A stretch of 32,000 nt of DNA from Promethearchaeum syntrophicum (GTDB lineage: Archaea; Asgardarchaeota; Lokiarchaeia; Sigyniarchaeales; Promethearchaeaceae): NCBI RefSeq assembly GCF_008000775.2, contig NZ_CP042905.2, positions 900,001 through 932,000 on the forward strand, in the 5' to 3' direction. Made by a program: the position numbers and the translations under genes. Below are positions 8,435 to 28,797 of this stretch, one piece after another; positions within the stretch are counted from its first letter, which is position 1, and each line of letters starts with the position of its first letter. The notes under the pieces were generated by a model that saw only the letters and a list, made by a program, of their open reading frames with translations, searched no databases and had not been told where the DNA came from.

Positions 8435-8887
8435 ATGCTATTTCCTCATCCAAAAGGAACAATTCAGTTGATTAAGGATATAGATTTAGATCAAATGAAG
8501 GAAATTTGGAATCAAAACTATTGTTTTTTGTCATCTACTGGAAGGATCCATACAACAGAAACAATAAACGACTGGTTCGAAAATCGACATACTGATTTTC
8601 ATGAATATTACGGATATTTTATCGATTCGATTCTGGTCGGTTTCATCATTATAAGAAATCCCAAAAAATCACTCTGGATAAAATTTTTAGCTGTAAAAAT
8701 AAGCTCCCAATCTCAAGGAGTTGGCAAAGCGTTATTGGATTTTATTATTAATAATAGCGAGAATAAACAAAAATTTACGGAATGTTTTATTGATAATATC
8801 AAAGCTCTTAATTTTTTTAAGAGATATGGATTTAAAATTGTTAAAGTTGATTCAGATTATAACGAATATACTTTAGAATATGAGTAA
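8435..8887 (+). CDS. GNAT-family N-acetyltransferase
   Basis: 150 aa. It carries the acetyl-CoA-binding motif A region LAVKISSQSQGVGKALLDFII and a C-terminal FFKRYGFKIV. It lies 12 bp downstream of the wHTH gene, so an operon is probable. Confidence 0.8.
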   Translation: MLFPHPKGTIQLIKDIDLDQMKEIWNQNYCFLSSTGRIHTTETINDWFENRHTDFHEYYGYFIDSILVGFIIIRNPKKSLWIKFLAVKISSQSQGVGKALLDFIINNSENKQKFTECFIDNIKALNFFKRYGFKIVKVDSDYNEYTLEYE

Positions 8888-11653: not shown

Positions 11654-13060
11654 TCAGAATTTACTGTGGTTTTTTTTTAGTTCTTTCTCGGAAAGAGTTT
11701 TTCGTACTCTTTTCTTTATTTGAGCGGTCATCCAATCATAAGAACCAATTTGTCCGAATTTACTCCAAATTTTTAAAATAAAAAACCATAAAATGACAAT
11801 AATCATACTATAACAAACTACCAATGCCATATTTTGAGCCCAACCAGGAAAAACTTTGTCCAGAATTAGGAGTTTTATTACAGATCCAAAAAAACTTTCC
11901 AATAAATACATAGTAAGTGAGAATTTACCAAAAAGTTGTAGGAAGGTCATCCTTTCTTTCTTCTTTTTCAACTTATAATCTAATTTATTTGTGTTCCTTT
12001 TATCTTTCTTTGAAATTTCAGAATAAACCAACATTGTTACAATTAAAATCATGATTCCTATTTGGAGATGAGTTGTTTGAATTGGTAAAGTTCTTAAAAT
12101 ATGCTCAACTGGCGGTTCTCCGAAGATTATATATCCTATTGTTCCTAAAATAATGTAAATTGATGAGACAATGATTCCAACCAATAAAAAAATATTTTTT
12201 GGAACTTTTCCTTTAATTTCAATTCCAATTGCTACTCCGTACAGAGCAAAACCCAGAAAAGGCATCATTGGATCCGAGTCTCCGACTAAAATACCAACTA
12301 ATATAATTTTCCCGTAATTTTCATCTATTAATGCCTGAACCCAAATAGGTCTTAAAATATCAATTAGGAATGGTGAAATTACTATTATAAATGTCGCTAA
12401 AATTCCCACTATAAGTAGGTTTCTATGAATTCTCTTATAACCTTCATTATGGAATAAAATTACAAGTAAAACACTATAAAACATTAGCGATAAACCCATC
12501 ATTGATAAAGCTCCACTTGAAAAAAAAGTAGGATACAAAGGAAATGGATGAAATACACCAGTTTCTAGATATCCTAATATATAAGAATAATATGTAGGAC
12601 CCGTATCAAAATCATAAATTCCTCCTCCTGTAACTGGCCGATCTAAAAAACGATAAACGACCCTCTCTAAAATTATGAACCATAAACCTACAATGAATGA
12701 TTCCATTATTGTTTTCTTCCCGTTTGTGGTTCCTTTTGAATATCTACTGTAAATACTCATTGAGTTTGATATTCCGGATATAAATACAAATATACCCGCC
12801 ATTCTCGCCATAAATTCGATCACTTTTGCAACTGGATTTTCAGTCAATGCAGATGCAACGCCCAATAGATCCATCTCTAAAAGTTGAAAACCGTGAAAAA
12901 GAACCATACAAAATATTGCAAATCCCCTAAGAGAATCAAGACTTTTCAATCTTCTTGAATGTTTCAATACTTTTTTGTCTATAGAATTTGTAATTATTTG
13001 GTATGTAGATTGTTGAATTATTATCACGATCCATGAAGAAATTATTGGCCATTTTAACAA
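11654..13060 (-). CDS. polytopic membrane protein, DUF1624 / HGSNAT-like acyltransferase family
   Basis: RLKSLDSLRGFAIFCMVLFHG near the N-terminus is the signature I associate with DUF1624/acyltransferase-3-like proteins, and there are about 10 TM segments. The start is uncertain: TTG at 13060 or GTG at 13027. There is no in-frame ATG upstream of the motif. Confidence 0.65.
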   Translation of the reverse strand: MLKWPIISSWIVIIIQQSTYQIITNSIDKKVLKHSRRLKSLDSLRGFAIFCMVLFHGFQLLEMDLLGVASALTENPVAKVIEFMARMAGIFVFISGISNSMSIYSRYSKGTTNGKKTIMESFIVGLWFIILERVVYRFLDRPVTGGGIYDFDTGPTYYSYILGYLETGVFHPFPLYPTFFSSGALSMMGLSLMFYSVLLVILFHNEGYKRIHRNLLIVGILATFIIVISPFLIDILRPIWVQALIDENYGKIILVGILVGDSDPMMPFLGFALYGVAIGIEIKGKVPKNIFLLVGIIVSSIYIILGTIGYIIFGEPPVEHILRTLPIQTTHLQIGIMILIVTMLVYSEISKKDKRNTNKLDYKLKKKKERMTFLQLFGKFSLTMYLLESFFGSVIKLLILDKVFPGWAQNMALVVCYSMIIVILWFFILKIWSKFGQIGSYDWMTAQIKKRVRKTLSEKELKKNHSKF

Positions 13061-13191
13061 TGAGAGCGAAATCTATTTAAGCTAAATATATAGAGTTCCC
13101 GGTAATTCTACATAAAGAATTTGTGAAAAAATCCATTTTGTTGATTTCAAATTTTTTGAATATTCGATAGCACACGAAATTAATGTTTGAG

Positions 13192-13205
13192 ATTTAACGT
13201 TAAAT
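13192..13205. promoter_or_regulatory. palindrome ATTTAACGTTAAAT in the unit 1 spacer (candidate operator)
   Basis: Perfect 14-bp palindrome centred on AACGTT. A related half-degenerate site, ttaatgtt, lies 14 bp upstream (13180-13187). The arrangement is conserved in unit 2. Confidence 0.3.
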
Positions 13206-13276
13206 TTGAAATATCTTATAATTTCGGATCAAAGAAAATTTAGATGTAATTTATGAATAAAATAGAGAATATGACA

Positions 13277-13305
13277 AGCCAGAATTCGATTTCGTGTCGC
13301 TAAAG
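13277..13305 (-). pseudogene. decayed tRNA-Asp 3'-exon fragment (psi-1)
   Basis: agccagaattcgatttcgtgtcgctaaag matches 21/29 positions of the plus-strand tRNA segment gaccggaattcgaatccgagtcgctggag (T-arm to the 3' side of the anticodon stem). The acceptor 3' strand, the intron and the 5' exon are absent. Confidence 0.7.
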
Positions 13306-13417
13306 AAATTCATAATTTAGAAAAGATCGAGATTTGTTAGAGATAAATCCTTTTAAGGTTAACAAAAATATTCCTTTAGAACAAAAATATATATAATATA
13401 CAAAACCATAGTTAAAT

Positions 13418-14038
13418 ATGGTTAGTAAAAAGGATTTTTTTACCTATACCAAAATTATTTTTATATTAACAATATGTTTTGGTCTTATCGGAAACTATAT
13501 CTATGTTGAGAATTTTAAACCTCTTATAAGTAATTACAATTATCATGATGAGCCAATTAATTCTTTGTTTCATAAGCAATACGATGATTTTGTATTAGAA
13601 GGTGGTCATGAATATATTTTCTACTTTTTTTTAGAAGGACCCCATGATGTCTATCTTAATATAAATATGATATTTGAAACCATGGATAATATTACAATCT
13701 CTTATGGTACAGGCGTAAATGAATCCTGGTTGGAGTACTGGGGGGAAGATAGAATTTATACAGAACCATTATATATTCCCCAAAACGAAACAATTTTTAT
13801 TTCGGTACAAATGACAGCTCCCGGCACTAGTTATGGTAGTTCTCATTGGCAAATGCTTGTTTATCAAGATTTACCCATGTGGTTAACCAAACCTATACCC
13901 ATAATTGTTTTCTTTACTATCCTCTTGCTCGTAATTTGGGCGATTGCATATGAAAAATATGAAAAAATCTTTACCGATATTAAAAACCAAAAAAGAAAAT
14001 TAGTAGAAAAAACGGAGGAAGTAAGAAATGTCGAATGA
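13418..14038 (+). CDS. bitopic membrane protein A1 (N-terminal TM anchor, ~120-aa exposed domain with N-x-S/T sequons, C-terminal TM, charged tail)
   Basis: 206-aa ORF and a paralog of 14863..15483. The TM segments are IIFILTICFGLIGNYIYV and PIPIIVFFTILLLVIWAIAY. The sequons NIT, NES and NET are conserved in the paralog. A TATA-like atatatataata lies about 25 nt upstream of the ATG. Confidence 0.75.
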   Translation: MVSKKDFFTYTKIIFILTICFGLIGNYIYVENFKPLISNYNYHDEPINSLFHKQYDDFVLEGGHEYIFYFFLEGPHDVYLNINMIFETMDNITISYGTGVNESWLEYWGEDRIYTEPLYIPQNETIFISVQMTAPGTSYGSSHWQMLVYQDLPMWLTKPIPIIVFFTILLLVIWAIAYEKYEKIFTDIKNQKRKLVEKTEEVRNVE

Positions 14039-14468
14039 AAATAAGGAAGAAAATTTTATATCAATGTCCGGTTCCAGTAAAATAAAGATAAAGCATATGA
14101 TTTCCCACCCAAATTTCTTTTCCGATTTTAGACAAACACCAATGAATTGGTTTTTGATAATTTTAAGTCTATTAATTTTGATCTTCGTAATGATAACTGA
14201 TCATTGGTATTTCATGATAGGAATACCTATTTTTATTGTGCTATTTATTTTTCTAATCATCTCCCAAGGAGAGTGGCAAAGGTTCAAAGTATATTATCCA
14301 ATATTAGATGTGGCTTTCTATGGATTAAACATTGCCGGTTTTATAATTCTATGCTTTTACAATATTTTCTTTTCTCTATCCGTTTTATTTTTGATATTGA
14401 TGTTTAGAATATATCTCGTCAATCGAGAAAAAAGAATAGCAACAGCTATGAAAGGGTTATATCCATGA
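14028..14468 (+). CDS. small four-TM membrane protein B1
   Basis: 146-aa ORF whose ATG overlaps the end of A1 by 11 nt (aaATGtcgaaTGA), which suggests translational coupling. It is a paralog of 15473..15913. Confidence 0.7.
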   Translation: MSNENKEENFISMSGSSKIKIKHMISHPNFFSDFRQTPMNWFLIILSLLILIFVMITDHWYFMIGIPIFIVLFIFLIISQGEWQRFKVYYPILDVAFYGLNIAGFIILCFYNIFFSLSVLFLILMFRIYLVNREKRIATAMKGLYP

Positions 14469-14635
14469 AGAATTTCTTACAGAAATTACTTACCCTTTAA
14501 AGAATGAGAGTAAAATCTATTTATGCTAAATATATAGAGTTTTCAGTAAATCTACATAAAAGATTTAATAAAAATTTTATTTTGTTGATTTCAAATTTCA
14601 TTGAACATTCGATAACACACGAAATTAACGTTTGA

Positions 14636-14651
14636 AATTTAACGTTAAATT
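14636..14651. promoter_or_regulatory. palindrome AATTTAACGTTAAATT in the unit 2 spacer (candidate operator)
   Basis: Perfect 16-bp palindrome. A second TTAACGTT lies at 14625-14632, so the two AACGTT centres are 14 bp apart, the same spacing as in unit 1. Confidence 0.3.
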
Positions 14652-14720
14652 CGAAATGTTTTATAATCACGGATTGTGGAAAATTTAGATGGAATTTATG
14701 AATAAAATAGAGAATATGAC

Positions 14721-14749
14721 AAACCAGATTTCGATTCCGAGTCGCTGGA
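14721..14749 (-). pseudogene. decayed tRNA-Asp 3'-exon fragment (psi-2)
   Basis: cgattccgagtcgctgga matches cgaatccgagtcgctgga of the intact gene at 17/18 positions, and aaccagattt matches gaccggaatt at 7/10. The preceding flank atgaataaaatagagaatatgac resembles atgaaataaaataaagaaaatg, which precedes the real tRNA 3' end. Confidence 0.8.
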
Positions 14750-14862
14750 AAAACCCTTAATTTAGAAAAGGTAGAGATTTTTTAAAGATAAATCCATTTT
14801 AAGGTTAAAAAATAATTACTTCAAACCAAAAACCTAAATTAAATACAAAACCTTAGATATAT

Positions 14863-15483
14863 ATGGTTAGTAAAAAGGATTTTTTTGCTTATGCCAAAAA
14901 CATTTTTATATTAACAATTTGTTTTGGGCTTATAGGAAACTATATCTACGTTGAGAATTTTGAAACCCTTATAAGTAATTATAATTATCATGATGAGCCA
15001 CTGAATTCTTTGTTTCATTGGAATTACAACAATTTCGAATTAGAAGGTGGTCATGAATATAGATTCTTCTTTTTTTTTGAAGGACCGCAAGATGCCTATC
15101 TTCATATAGATATGATATTTGAAACCATGGACAATATAACATTCTCATACAATACAGGTGCAAATGAAACTTGGTTTGGGCAATGGGGGGAAAATACAAT
15201 TTATACAGAACCAATATACATTCCCCAAAATGAAACAATTTCTATTTCGGTAAACATAAATCCGGGCAGCATTAGTTCTAGTACTCTTCATTGGCAAATG
15301 CTGGTTTATCAAGATTTACCTATGTGGTTAACCAAACCCTTACCCATAATTGCTTTCTTTACTATTCTCCTGCTCGTAATTTGGGTGATTGCATATGAAC
15401 ACTATGAAAAAATCTTTACAAATATTAAAAACCAAAAAATAAAATTGATCGAAGAAACGGAGGAAGTTACAAATGTCGTATGA
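14863..15483 (+). CDS. bitopic membrane protein A2 (paralog of A1)
   Basis: Same length (206 aa) and same architecture, with 156/206 identical residues to A1. Confidence 0.75.
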   Translation: MVSKKDFFAYAKNIFILTICFGLIGNYIYVENFETLISNYNYHDEPLNSLFHWNYNNFELEGGHEYRFFFFFEGPQDAYLHIDMIFETMDNITFSYNTGANETWFGQWGENTIYTEPIYIPQNETISISVNINPGSISSSTLHWQMLVYQDLPMWLTKPLPIIAFFTILLLVIWVIAYEHYEKIFTNIKNQKIKLIEETEEVTNVV

Positions 15484-15913
15484 AAATAAGGAAGAAAGTA
15501 CTATATCAATACACGGTACCAGTAAAATTAAGATAAAACATTTGGTTACTCATCCATATTTCTTTTCTGATTTTAGACAAACACCAATAAATTGGGTTTT
15601 GATAATTTTAAGTGTAGTAAGTTTGATCTTTGTATTTAATACTGATCGGTGGTATTTTTTGATAGGAATTCCTATTTTTATTGCACTGTTTATTTTTCTA
15701 ATTCTCTTCCAAGGAGAGTGGCAAAGGTTTAATGTATATTATCCAATATTAGATGTGGTTTTCTATGGATTTATTATAGTCGATTTTATTATTCTATGTT
15801 TTTTTAATATTTTCTTTTCTCTATCCGTTATATTTTTGATACTGAAATTTAAAAATTATCTCGTCGATCGAGAAAACCGAATAGCATCTGCAATGAAAGG
15901 GCTATATTCTTAA
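15473..15913 (+). CDS. small four-TM membrane protein B2 (paralog of B1)
   Basis: 146 aa with 109/146 identical residues to B1 and the same 11-nt overlap with the upstream A gene. Confidence 0.7.
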   Translation: MSYENKEESTISIHGTSKIKIKHLVTHPYFFSDFRQTPINWVLIILSVVSLIFVFNTDRWYFLIGIPIFIALFIFLILFQGEWQRFNVYYPILDVVFYGFIIVDFIILCFFNIFFSLSVIFLILKFKNYLVDRENRIASAMKGLYS

Positions 15914-16041
15914 TTAATTCATAAGGTGACAAGATAGTCTAAAAAATATTGATCTTTTTTTTAATTTATTATAATTTTCTTCTAATTTACGTGATATTTT
16001 AATAAAACAGAGTCATATTAAATGAAATAAAATAAAGAAAA

Positions 16042-16147
16042 TGGCGCCCCGACCGGAATTCGAATCCGAGTCGCTGGAGAGCTGCTGAATACTTGAAAAC
16101 AAGCATACATTGACAGTCCAACATGCTTACCACTACACTATCGGGGC
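16042..16147 (-). tRNA. tRNA-Asp: tRNA-Asp (anticodon GUC) with a 31-nt intron at the canonical 37/38 position and an encoded CCA
   Basis: The reverse complement folds as acceptor GCCCCGA/TCGGGGC, D-arm GTGT-AGTGGTAA-GCAT, anticodon stem TTGGA/TCCAG, loop CTGTCA[intron]C, T-arm TCGGA-TTCGAAT-TCCGG, discriminator G and CCA. The intron (plus-strand 16080-16110) sits in a bulge-helix-bulge: a 3-nt bulge CAA, the 4-bp helix CUGU/GCAG, a 3-nt bulge CUC, and then the intron helix UGUAUGCUUG/CAAGUAUUCA. Confidence 0.93.
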
Positions 16148-16286
16148 TTTTAAGAATATTTGAGTTTACTAAAAAATCTTAATCTAAAAAAGGTAGACCT
16201 AAATTAAAAATTTTTGATACTATACTTTATCAACTACATTCATAATCGAGAATTTTTAAAATTATTCAAGATTACTGAGAGTATTA

Positions 16287-16943
16287 ATGAATAAGGAAAT
16301 ATGCATTATTTGGGATTGGAATGGCACATTAATTGATGATGTACACACCTCACTTGAGTGTATAAATATCATTTTAAAGAAACATCAATTAGCAACAATA
16401 AATCGAGAAAATTATCAACAAATTTTTACGTTTCCAGTTGAGCAGTACTATAGAAAGCTTGGGTTTGATTTTACAAAAATTTCTTTTGCGAAATTAGCGG
16501 ATGAATTTATCCATGAGTATAAAAAAAGAATGTTGGATGCGAAATTATATCCCAATGTGAAAGATGTTTTGGAACACCTGCAACAAATGGGTGTAAAACA
16601 ATTTGTAATTTCAGCTATGGAAATTGGAAAACTCAAGCTATGTATCGAAAATAAAGGTATATCACATTATTTTGAAGACATTTTGGGGTTGAATAATAAT
16701 TATGCTAATGGCAAAATGAGTTTAGTAAAAGAGTTCGCGAGACAAAGAAAGGATTTATTATATTCGAGTAATATTTGGATGATCGGCGATACTGAACATG
16801 ATTTTTACATAGCTAGTGAATTAAAATGGAATTCTATCCTGGTTTCCCAAGGCCATCACAGTTATTCAAGATTGAGTGCTGTTGGTAATATTGTGCTGAG
16901 AAATTTAAATGATATCAAGAAAATCTTTTCAAACATAATATAA
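16287..16943 (+). CDS. HAD-superfamily hydrolase (phosphoglycolate-phosphatase-like subfamily IA)
   Basis: The motif I region is ICIIWDWNGTLIDD. Motif II is VISA (S/T), and motif IV is the region MIGDTEHDFYIA (GDxxxD). The length of 218 aa fits a small cap domain. Confidence 0.8.
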   Translation: MNKEICIIWDWNGTLIDDVHTSLECINIILKKHQLATINRENYQQIFTFPVEQYYRKLGFDFTKISFAKLADEFIHEYKKRMLDAKLYPNVKDVLEHLQQMGVKQFVISAMEIGKLKLCIENKGISHYFEDILGLNNNYANGKMSLVKEFARQRKDLLYSSNIWMIGDTEHDFYIASELKWNSILVSQGHHSYSRLSAVGNIVLRNLNDIKKIFSNII

Positions 16944-17379
16944 TAAGAATGTATATAAGAATAATTATATGCAAGGTTCACCGGATGAGTTATTAATGAA
17001 GGTAAAATACGAGAGAGATCTCTGATTACACTCATAAATGTTGTGGATATAACTTAAATCGAATCGAAAAAGAGGGTTTTTAATTTATCCAAATCAGCAA
17101 TAGTACTAGTAATTTTAAACTTAGTCTGTTAAGTATTCCTTGTGTTTTAATGCCCAGTGTAGCATTTTTTCTTCAATCTGAGCAATTTCTTCGTCTGTTA
17201 TCATAAATTAATCACCTTAAGCATGTGTCTTATATTTCTATAAAAAAGGCTATTTTTTTTTTTAAATAAAATCTATAGCTATTTTCTATAACGCTTACTA
17301 AGGCTTTGTGTTACATGTTCAAAAAATTTTTCGAATACAATTATTTGTTGGTGAGAAAAATGGGATTAAATTTTTTTAT

Positions 17380-27261: not shown

Positions 27262-28797
27262 ATGAGTCATAATCCCTCAAAAAGCTTTAGGAAAAAAACA
27301 ACCCGTCGAAAATCCAGGAGAAGTTCTCAAGGATCTACTTCATCTGGTGCTGAAATTGAAATTGTCCGATATGGGGTCGGCTTAGATGTTCATAAGGAGA
27401 ACATTGTGGTGAGTGTCGCGGCCCAAACTGAGCAAAACTTGATTATTCAAATTCGAACCCATAAATTTCGAAATCAACCTCAAGGATTGCAGGAATTAAC
27501 CCAGTTCTTACAGAAATATCTTCCCGTTTCCCATTATTTAATGGAATGCACAGGCATATATCATCGACCTGTATATCACGCCTTGGAAGATGCATTTCCG
27601 AATTCAAAGACGAAAATTATTGCAATGAATCCATTATTGGTCCACCGTAAATTGACCGATTTGGGAAACAAACATGATAAAGCAGATGCTCAAGGCATGG
27701 CAGAACTTAGCTTCTACGATCGATTAATACGACCAAGTTATATCGGTACTCCCGAGTTTTTCCATTTGCGGGATACTCTGCGAAATTACAAGCATGCAAA
27801 GAAAGCAGCTAATAAATACGTGAATCGTATTCATCGAGTATTATGCAGTGTCAATTTCATGCATAAACTTAATCTTCATCATGAATGGGAATTACACTTG
27901 CTCGATTTTATGATTACAACTGAAGGTCCGATGAAACGGGCATTTAAAGCAATGGTAGAATCATCTCAGTTAGAAAAGCGATCAATCAGCAGCTTGATGA
28001 AACATCAAGATGATTATGTGCCTTATTTTAACATAGAACTTCCCAAAACTTCTCGGTTCAACTTGCGACAATTAGTCATCCAATATCTCCAAGCAGAAAC
28101 AAATGCTGCCCAATATTTATTGCAAACCGAAAAACAAATTCTTAAGGATGCTGAATTCGAATATTGGTACCTCCAACTTCTCCGAATTCCCTGTGTAGGG
28201 CAAGTTTCCGCCTTGCGTTTAATTACTGAATTAGGGGATTTTCGACGGTTTGTCAATTGGAAGGCTTTTGCTAAATATTGCGGAGTAGTTCCTGAAATAA
28301 AGGAAAGTGGAGGAACATTTACTCCCGGTCATATCAATCGGTTTACTAATACTCATCTTCGGACCGCCTTATCACAAATTGCCATGTTATATGTCAACGG
28401 TTATGCCAAGGGAAGCGACTTAGCTAAATTTGCTCATCGCCAGTATGTTTTAAGAGGACTTCCTTACAAGAAAGCCGTGATGCGAGTGGCTCAAAAACTC
28501 AGTCGCATTATATATCAAGTCCTAGTAAATAATGTTTCCTATGATGCGACTTTTGAACAAACCAAGGCGAAAATACAGCGATTGCAGCGCCGAAATACCA
28601 AACACGGTACAATGTTAGAATTTCCCCAAACTCGCAGTCTCCGTCGTGATATATCTCAACTTTTGGTTACCAACTCACAATATATGACCTCCAAAAGTCG
28701 CTTCTTCTTGATAAAGGGTTTCCAACAATTGATACGGAAGGCAAATGTAGTGGAACTGCAAGGGACTAAGGTGGATTCAAAAAAAAATAAGATTTAG
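27262..28797 (+). CDS. IS110-family transposase/recombinase (DEDD RuvC-like domain plus C-terminal Tnp domain)
   Basis: Motifs YGVGLDVHKENIVV (first Asp), LMECTGIYHRP (Glu), NKHDKADAQ, and C-terminal FAKYCGVVPEIKESGG (conserved Ser region) with NTHLRTAL. A basic ~35-aa N-terminal extension makes the protein long (511 aa) for this family. Confidence 0.88.
   Translation: MSHNPSKSFRKKTTRRKSRRSSQGSTSSGAEIEIVRYGVGLDVHKENIVVSVAAQTEQNLIIQIRTHKFRNQPQGLQELTQFLQKYLPVSHYLMECTGIYHRPVYHALEDAFPNSKTKIIAMNPLLVHRKLTDLGNKHDKADAQGMAELSFYDRLIRPSYIGTPEFFHLRDTLRNYKHAKKAANKYVNRIHRVLCSVNFMHKLNLHHEWELHLLDFMITTEGPMKRAFKAMVESSQLEKRSISSLMKHQDDYVPYFNIELPKTSRFNLRQLVIQYLQAETNAAQYLLQTEKQILKDAEFEYWYLQLLRIPCVGQVSALRLITELGDFRRFVNWKAFAKYCGVVPEIKESGGTFTPGHINRFTNTHLRTALSQIAMLYVNGYAKGSDLAKFAHRQYVLRGLPYKKAVMRVAQKLSRIIYQVLVNNVSYDATFEQTKAKIQRLQRRNTKHGTMLEFPQTRSLRRDISQLLVTNSQYMTSKSRFFLIKGFQQLIRKANVVELQGTKVDSKKNKI

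Follow-up and report, generated by a model that had tools for sequence, protein, structure and literature searches.

Tandem duplication of an orphan membrane-protein cassette beside a tRNA-Asp gene in Promethearchaeum syntrophicum MK-D1

We analysed a 32,000-nt stretch (the window, to whose coordinates all positions refer unless another locus is named) of the 4.32-Mb chromosome of Promethearchaeum syntrophicum MK-D1, identified by exact protein matches; the cassette genes there are DSAG12_01398-01401. Here, two copies of a two-gene cassette, whose genes A and B encode membrane proteins, lie head to tail beside a functional tRNA-Asp gene, and each copy is preceded by a decayed piece of that tRNA gene, hereafter the pseudo-fragment. 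What happened in MK-D1 was a straightforward tandem duplication, real and well resolved, of an orphan accessory cassette; it is old, not recent. The pseudo-fragment is a relic of one older event and not a marker of each cassette's own arrival. The whole architecture is probably the outcome of two separate events, neither of which was a serial integration. The locus provides a fully traceable example of duplication in the one closed genome of a cultured Asgard member, with its junction, its age and the single-copy and empty alleles all visible, and it illustrates that a tRNA fragment beside an insert need not imply integrase-mediated integration.

The duplication appears as a direct repeat over 13037-15913 with a period of 1444-1445 nt (repeat families D1 and D2). 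It consists of two adjacent, collinear units on the plus strand, unit 1 at 13031-14462 and unit 2 at 14463-15907 (1445 nt), which are arranged head to tail with only one new junction, at 14462/14463. Unit 1 comprises the leader and promoter of the upstream acyltransferase gene, a spacer, the pseudo-fragment, gene A1 and gene B1 up to its penultimate codon, and unit 2 supplies an extra copy of that leader and promoter region together with the spacer, the fragment and the cassette. The junction reads 'GGGTTATAT|CCATGAAGAA'. To its left stands B1, one codon shorter than B2 and the B genes of relatives, with a last codon made by the duplication junction; to its right stands sequence that unit 1 has immediately upstream of the GTG, the conserved start of the acyltransferase gene. 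The initial annotation had described a two-unit tandem duplication in which each unit holds a tRNA-Asp remnant and an overlapping gene pair, and the repeat bears this out; its two units of ~1.44 kb stand, but its exact edges (13029-14460 and 14461-15913) had to be corrected to those given above.

The two units are 85% identical at the nucleotide level, with a synonymous divergence (dS) of 0.32-0.35 and a ratio of nonsynonymous to synonymous divergence (dN/dS) of 0.37-0.41, and the encoded proteins share 76% (A1/A2) and 75% (B1/B2) identity. Because the copies differ at 15% of their nucleotides, the duplication is neither an assembly artefact, a point that had already been made from the protein divergence, nor a recent event. 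Both copies in MK-D1 are intact and under purifying selection. In these respects the locus resembles the tandem gene-block duplications of Asgard archaea (PMC13247210), which are likewise head-to-tail blocks with both copies under purifying selection; the dN/dS found here is close to the median of 0.367 reported for tandem paralogues across Asgard genomes, and gene duplication together with gene flow has been argued to be a major driver of Asgard genome growth (PMC13247210). It differs from them in that the genes are orphans, that a tRNA pseudo-fragment and the promoter region of a neighbour were duplicated along with them, and that the MK-D1 block is itself accessory and relocatable. The locus is akin to two known kinds, tRNA-adjacent islets and Asgard tandem duplications.

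A lookup of A and B homologues recovered syntenic contigs of related Promethearchaeota, namely loci L002-L005 (one lineage, assembled four times) together with L006, L010 and L012. The tandem copy is present only in MK-D1, and a single cassette is found in L002-L006, L010 and L012. Neighbour joining of the cassette region groups units 1 and 2 as sisters in 96% of 300 bootstraps, and the two units have states in common that the relatives lack, including a trailer of 21 nt, 'ATGAATAAAATAGAGAATATG', that is identical in both units and reads 'ATCAATAAAAT...' in the relatives. These data bear on the alternative of allele capture, in which unit 2 would have come from a related lineage by homologous recombination and been set beside the resident unit. 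Such a capture would agree with the mosaic nature of the locus described below, with a between-unit dS no smaller than the value that separates MK-D1 from the copy at locus L001 (0.22-0.27), and with the short internal branch that joins the two units. However, the bootstrap support for the pair, the derived states common to both units and a junction of the form expected of a simple tandem duplication all speak against it, and we regard this alternative as improbable.

The origin of the pseudo-fragments could be traced by comparison with the intact gene. The functional tRNA-Asp(GUC) gene lies on the minus strand at 16042-16147 (Rfam RF00005, 49.6 bits at 16045-16147), with orthologues in relatives, an encoded CCA at 16042-16044 and an intron of ~31 nt at position 37/38 (about 16080-16110); ARAGORN missed it owing to the intron, and Rfam found one tRNA in the window. 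A 27-nt stretch of this gene (16052-16078), which covers the T-arm and the 3' strand of the anticodon stem, matches 14723-14749 at 24/27 and 13278-13304 at 21/27 positions, and the dinucleotide-shuffled window gave 0 matches to it at three or fewer mismatches. The box flanking the tRNA on its 5' side (16171-16211, with no strand assigned), which forms the right-hand end of the old direct repeat around the cassette, is repeated right after each fragment, at 13304-13344 and 14749-14789, with 76-80% identity over 41 nt, and right before each fragment there is a match to the 3' trailer of tRNA-Asp. Pseudo-fragment 1 (13253-13344, minus strand) is accordingly made up of the trailer (13253-13273), the T-arm with the 3' anticodon-stem strand (13278-13304) and the flank box (13304-13344); pseudo-fragment 2 (14698-14789, minus strand) has the same anatomy and no significant fold (z 0.1 to 0.5). 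Relative to the intact gene, ~95 nt are missing (23 nt of leader, the 5' half and the intron), as are ~5 nt of the acceptor 3' strand. The tRNA-Asp remnant of the initial annotation is therefore real, and so is the resemblance that it reported of the 3' flank and part of the 5' flank of the tRNA to the flanks of the remnants, but the remnant is not the tRNA-Asp 3' exon, as the acceptor 3' strand is deleted.

All single-cassette relatives, in which one A-B pair lies between the acyltransferase gene and a HAD hydrolase gene, have the same spacer, a tRNA fragment with the same two deletions (24-25/27 matches to the 27-nt stretch) and the flank box before the cassette. Because these relatives already have the fragment with both of its flanks, it is older than the MK-D1 duplication and was copied along with the cassette. 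The fragment of L002 retains 'GCCA', that is, the discriminator base plus CCA, and in L010 and L006 the fragment side resembles the tRNA side for 55-68 nt past the tRNA 3' end (z 4.2 and 5.8). At full length, the repeat spans from 'AGTTCTTAG', beside the acyltransferase promoter box, to 'AAAAAAGGTAGA', which amounts to ~258 nt in L019; its right-hand copy is whole in L006, and L010 and MK-D1 hold the tRNA-proximal part of it only. Since both tRNA flanks are included, the repeat represents the whole tRNA-Asp region duplicated, with one copy decayed. The preference of the initial annotation for a segmental duplication with internal deletion over serial integration is thus upheld by the flanked fragment of the relatives, by a junction free of tRNA sequence and by the sister relationship of the copies. 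At L012, a metagenome contig, a deletion at about 1000-1100 took the 5' part of the acyltransferase gene along with the left half of the spacer and the 35-nt element within it (described below), and the contig keeps the tRNA fragment, the flank box and the cassette despite this loss.

Empty sites were reached by a search with the HAD protein. In three lineages (L019/L020, L021 and L022) the gap between the acyltransferase and HAD genes is 420-510 nt and holds one intact tRNA-Asp, with no fragment and no cassette, and this single intergenic region aligns to both the fragment-side and the tRNA-side sequences of the filled sites. In the older of the two proposed events, common to the relatives, a promoter-bearing cassette of ~1.23 kb, running from 'ATTTTTTGAAG' (89 nt upstream of A) to 'TTTTAATAAAAC' (~95 nt after B), would have been placed between two copies of the tRNA-Asp region, each of which, when complete, spans ~258 nt from the 3' trailer through the tRNA to the 5'-flank box. 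Loss of the 5' leader, the 5' half and the 3' strand of the acceptor stem would then have turned the upstream copy into the pseudo-fragment, with the downstream copy staying as the working tRNA. In the later event, confined to the MK-D1 lineage, illegitimate recombination would have duplicated in tandem a segment of 1445 nt that extends from just upstream of the acyltransferase start codon to the penultimate codon of B, pseudo-fragment included, after which the copies would have stayed intact and diverged to ~85% nucleotide identity.

A second alternative holds that the fragment and spacer are functional, whether as a tRNA half, a split or permuted tRNA gene or another non-coding RNA, with the copied tRNA promoter box driving it. 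The flank box of the tRNA does abut the fragment, the fragment is kept across lineages, and the spacer contains a perfectly conserved 35-mer. On the other hand, the spacer, 81-83% conserved between MK-D1 and L002, does not exceed other intergenic regions (74-96%) in conservation; the deleted acceptor strand has no compensating partner, with no 5'-half-like sequence found besides the real tRNA; the fragments fold no better than shuffles, have decayed further in MK-D1 and give no Rfam match, the real tRNA being the sole one; and the translocated cassettes at L001 and L007, like the empty sites, do without the fragment. A functional role of this kind is therefore very improbable. Special constraint on the spacer and fragment was also considered and rejected, as other intergenic regions are conserved equally well or better and the fragment has no fold.

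The 35-nt element, with two AACGTT palindromes, lies at 13171-13205 with a second copy at 14616-14650 (no strand assigned) and is 35/35 identical in unit 2, L002, L006 and L010; in the alignment, neither the empty sites nor the tRNA-side repeat contain it. Its hairpin z-scores are -2.1 and -3.5, and it may be an operator or a small insertion. A core-promoter-like box with a TATA-like 'CTATATATTTAGC' lies at 13070-13097 on the minus strand, with a second copy at 14514-14541; it matches at 28/28 or 27/28 positions in relatives, also occurs in the empty sites and, judging from its position, would be the promoter of the upstream acyltransferase gene. At the 5' end of the latter gene, unit 1 of MK-D1 has an 11-nt deletion relative to L006 and L010 just upstream of the GTG (13029-13060), which puts the upstream ATG of L006 and L010 out of frame in MK-D1; the gene probably starts at the GTG on the minus strand (13026-13028). 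An earlier assignment of the first 11 acyltransferase codons to unit 2 was dropped in view of this conserved start, and unit 2 holds the leader and promoter, probably without coding sequence.

Serial site-specific integration, in which a small element would have entered the 3' half of tRNA-Asp twice, displacing a partial tRNA copy on each occasion, and its integrase would have been lost later or act in trans, is largely refuted and the least probable of all: the order fragment-cassette-fragment-cassette-tRNA is its expected product, tRNA genes are the usual archaeal attachment sites (PMC3293823) and empty sites with an intact tRNA exist, but the repeats take in both tRNA flanks and so extend beyond an att core, the unit boundary falls in the last codon of B and the acyltransferase leader with no tRNA-derived sequence, the single-cassette relatives have the same fragment with the same two deletions, the units are sister sequences, and no integrase domain was found in any open reading frame (ORF) of the window or in the inserts of L001, L002, L006 and L017. 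The absence of an integrase from the window had been recorded in the initial annotation. The sole transposase gene in the window, of the IS110 family (DEDD_Tnp_IS110 and Transposase_20), lies at 27262-28797 in a GC-richer patch of about 26-29 kb; a distance of 11 kb separates it from the cassette, to which it showed no link. A 480-aa ORF at L006 was considered as the missing recombinase and rejected, as it has no supporting domain and carries a C-terminal membrane anchor.

The tRNA fragments left by integrated elements in other archaea (SSV1- and pNOB8-type; tRNA-Thr of Caldiarchaeum; Sugahara et al. 2012, PMC3293823) nevertheless resemble this locus in several ways: a partial tRNA lies 1.3-2.9 kb from the intact one with genes between them, the insert is present or absent in close lineages, and the tRNA introns vary between lineages. 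Unlike those systems, the MK-D1 locus is without a recombinase gene, its repeat of ~258 nt with both tRNA flanks contrasts with an att core of 40-50 nt, and its fragment, internally deleted, represents a 3' part of the tRNA, with tandem duplication as the source of the second one.

Next, the slot beside tRNA-Asp was compared across lineages. It is variable and holds zero, one or two cassettes or other genes. The gap between the cassette and the tRNA contains nothing in L010, the second cassette in MK-D1, a DUF5678 and retropepsin-like pair in L002, and in L006 the 480-aa ORF, which has no recognisable domain; the slot of the outgroup L017 has no A-B and holds a DUF3368/UPF0175 (toxin-antitoxin) pair and two further genes (leucine-rich repeat, LRR). 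The comparison at tRNA-Asp suggested by the initial annotation thus revealed varying copy number, and the proposed tRNA-Asp-anchored accessory locus is well founded, but the description as actively rearranging does not fit MK-D1, in which the duplication is old (15% nucleotide divergence, dS about 0.33) and the copies are intact. The flanking genes of this slot tell different histories. For the left-flank genes, both trees and dS place MK-D1 closest to L021 and L002 closest to L019, and for the HAD gene (16287-16943) the nearest sequence to that of L002 is the one of MK-D1 (dS 0.39) and the most distant is that of L019 (0.94). This flip of the phylogenetic signal across the tRNA-Asp slot points to homologous recombination between lineages, with a breakpoint near the tRNA.

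The genes of the cassette are orphan and fast-evolving. A1 (DSAG12_01398, 13418-14038) and A2 (DSAG12_01400, 14863-15483) each encode 206 aa, and B1 (14028-14468) and B2 (DSAG12_01401, 15473-15913) each encode 146 aa, all on the plus strand. Start and end overlap by 11 nt in each pair, and this overlap is conserved. The initial annotation had called an overlapping pair of a bitopic A and a four-helix B that belonged to no known family, and each of these points is confirmed: A has two hydrophobic helices and B has four, and neither protein has a profile match at E <= 0.01 in Pfam, NCBIfam, PHROGs or PADLOC. Its suggestion that homologues be sought on viral or plasmid records led to none in IMG/VR, INPHARED phages or PLSDB plasmids, and literature searches returned nothing on DSAG12_01398-01401. 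An exhaustive profile search of 1.84 billion cluster representatives yielded 11 relatives of A. Seven of these are distant (22-33% identity) and have the same architecture with conserved 'YQDLP' and 'W..AY..YEK' motifs, and one distant homologue adjoins a B-like gene of 146 aa (hhalign probability 93%). At L007, L008, L009 and L011, A and B are fused in a single ORF of 359 aa (P0012). The conserved 11-nt overlap, this fusion and the B-like neighbour of a distant A indicate that A and B act together, apparently as a translationally coupled pair that is sometimes fused.

With respect to structure, A has an N-terminal transmembrane helix, a beta-sandwich ectodomain with three N-x-S/T sequons, a C-terminal transmembrane helix and a charged tail. 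In the AlphaFold model (predicted local distance difference test score, pLDDT, 62), a transmembrane helix is followed by a beta-sandwich of ~95 residues, a second transmembrane helix and the charged tail, and Foldseek returned weak matches of this pLDDT-62 query to C1q/TNF/CBM-like jelly-rolls (E about 3e-3, TM 0.26-0.45). The model of the A-B fusion (pLDDT 58) was too weak for use. The dN/dS of A and B is 0.4-0.6 in comparisons with MK-D1 and 0.9-3.8 among metagenomic sequences, compared with 0.06-0.21 for ten neighbouring genes. Taken together, A-B most likely forms a small membrane complex that is exposed at the surface and evolves under weak or diversifying constraint, and both proteins are candidate surface-interaction proteins in a host whose cell-cell contacts are widely of interest. 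The archaeal 'dark matter' islands of small membrane-protein genes (PMC4158269) are comparable in kind only, in that orphan, narrowly distributed and fast-evolving membrane proteins occupy a variable spot; unlike in those islands, no link of A or B to known secretion, defence or virus modules was found.

The cassette also occurs away from tRNA-Asp, which helps to define its limits. It starts at 'AGATTTTTTGAAG', 89 nt upstream of the start codon of A, exactly where the alignment of L007 to L002 begins. Its 3' tail of ~95 nt (15914-16008, plus strand) ends in '...TTTTAATAAAAC', has 80-82% identity with the sequence after B in L001, L002 and L010, is present in L006 too, and travels with the cassette to L001. 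At L001, in the interval that separates the NurA gene from the proteasome gene, the cassette has the 95-nt tail and a 5' region that is shortened. A direct repeat of 177 nt (81% identity; score 190 compared with 31 +/- 5 in shuffles) flanks it on both sides and corresponds to the 3' end of a neighbouring zinc-ribbon membrane-protein gene. The metagenome-assembled genome (MAG) of L001 also holds L021, an empty tRNA-Asp site. At L007, L008, L009 and L011, the A-B fusion is bracketed by a 37-nt repeat (84% identity) between a gene for an FAD-binding-domain protein and ydjM. At all three loci, then, the cassette sits between direct repeats of local sequence, and no recombinase gene was found in or near it at any of them. 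Between the left 177-nt repeat and the cassette, L001 additionally contains a 67-nt direct repeat (L001 9082-9148 and 9368-9434, 90% identity) as well as a 129-aa ORF that lacks any recognisable domain (L001 9518-9907), which may be remnants of whatever moved the cassette.

A question raised by these loci is how the cassette moves. In Campbell-type insertion-duplication, a single crossover of a circle with homology to its target leaves the insert flanked by a direct duplication of the target, which can be of any length, and replication template switching would yield the same product. A cassette bracketed by repeats at three loci fits either route, and the repeats of 258, 177 and 37 nt would match the product expected of insertion-duplication; no circular intermediate of the cassette was seen. 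Across lineages the cassette is an accessory unit, and it probably spreads and is lost via homologous recombination of the host and not through a recombinase of its own. A more speculative proposal, which we put forward tentatively and consider unlikely as a whole, is that A-B constitutes, in Promethearchaeum-like Asgard archaea, a mobile cassette that does without a recombinase. Its insertion, by insertion-duplication through host homologous recombination or by template switching, would generate long target duplications of variable length (37, 177 and ~258 nt), and the same repeats would permit clean excision and leave empty sites; the module carried as cargo would act at the surface and diversify rapidly, and the tRNA-Asp site would be a recombination hot spot with turnover of tRNA introns. 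If the pattern of local repeats holds true, it would point to host recombination as a route by which small gene cassettes move in these archaea.

Several points weigh against the two-event history and the proposed mobility. On the tree of the flanking genes, filled alleles are intermixed with empty ones, the left-flank signal is moderate (47%, one node), and the older event may have had either polarity, as an insertion that duplicated its target or as a duplication with later deletion. The 22-nt trailer match of MK-D1 is not significant alone (z 0.1) and counts by position only, the left part of the right-hand repeat is clear in L006 only, and the 'AT' microhomology at the junction is unreliable after 15% divergence. 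The relatives are MAG or metagenome contigs, and the joint binning of L001 and L021 is assumed. Furthermore, a promoter motif that recurs could account for the 37-nt repeat of L007, the contexts of L001 and L007 yielded no empty site, and the function proposed for the proteins draws on low-confidence models (pLDDT 62 and 58) and weak fold matches.

The tRNA-Asp gene itself varies in intron content between close relatives. Orthologues with several introns fell below the Rfam gathering threshold and were recovered via alignment to the intron-less L019 gene. The tRNA-Asp(GUC) gene has no intron in L019/L020, the canonical 37/38 intron only in MK-D1, L006 and L017 (mutually homologous), a D-loop intron only in L010 and L021, D-loop and T-loop introns in L002, and canonical and T-loop introns in L022. 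Beyond the MK-D1 copy at 16042-16147, the genes lie at 12205-12340 in L002, 3879-3980 in L006, about 2962-3064 in L010, about 7752-7851 in L017, 7778-7852 in L019, about 7755-7861 in L021 and about 7731-7861 in L022. This distribution represents rapid intron gain and loss at a single gene beside a recombination hot spot.

The wider context of the locus is chromosomal-looking, with Asgard-like neighbours (an Arf-like GTPase, a protein kinase with LRR and tetratricopeptide repeats (LRR-TPR), and an HGSNAT/acyltransferase-3-like membrane protein) and a flat GC content of ~0.27-0.31 across the region. Gene content also differs between lineages on either side of the slot. A GNAT acetyltransferase gene (8435-8887) is present in MK-D1 and L022 and absent from L002, L019 and L021, and the interval between the HAD gene and a gene encoding 231 aa (16944-17379) is empty in MK-D1, contains genes for 85 and 362 aa in L002 and L021, and contains a DUF6326 gene in L019.

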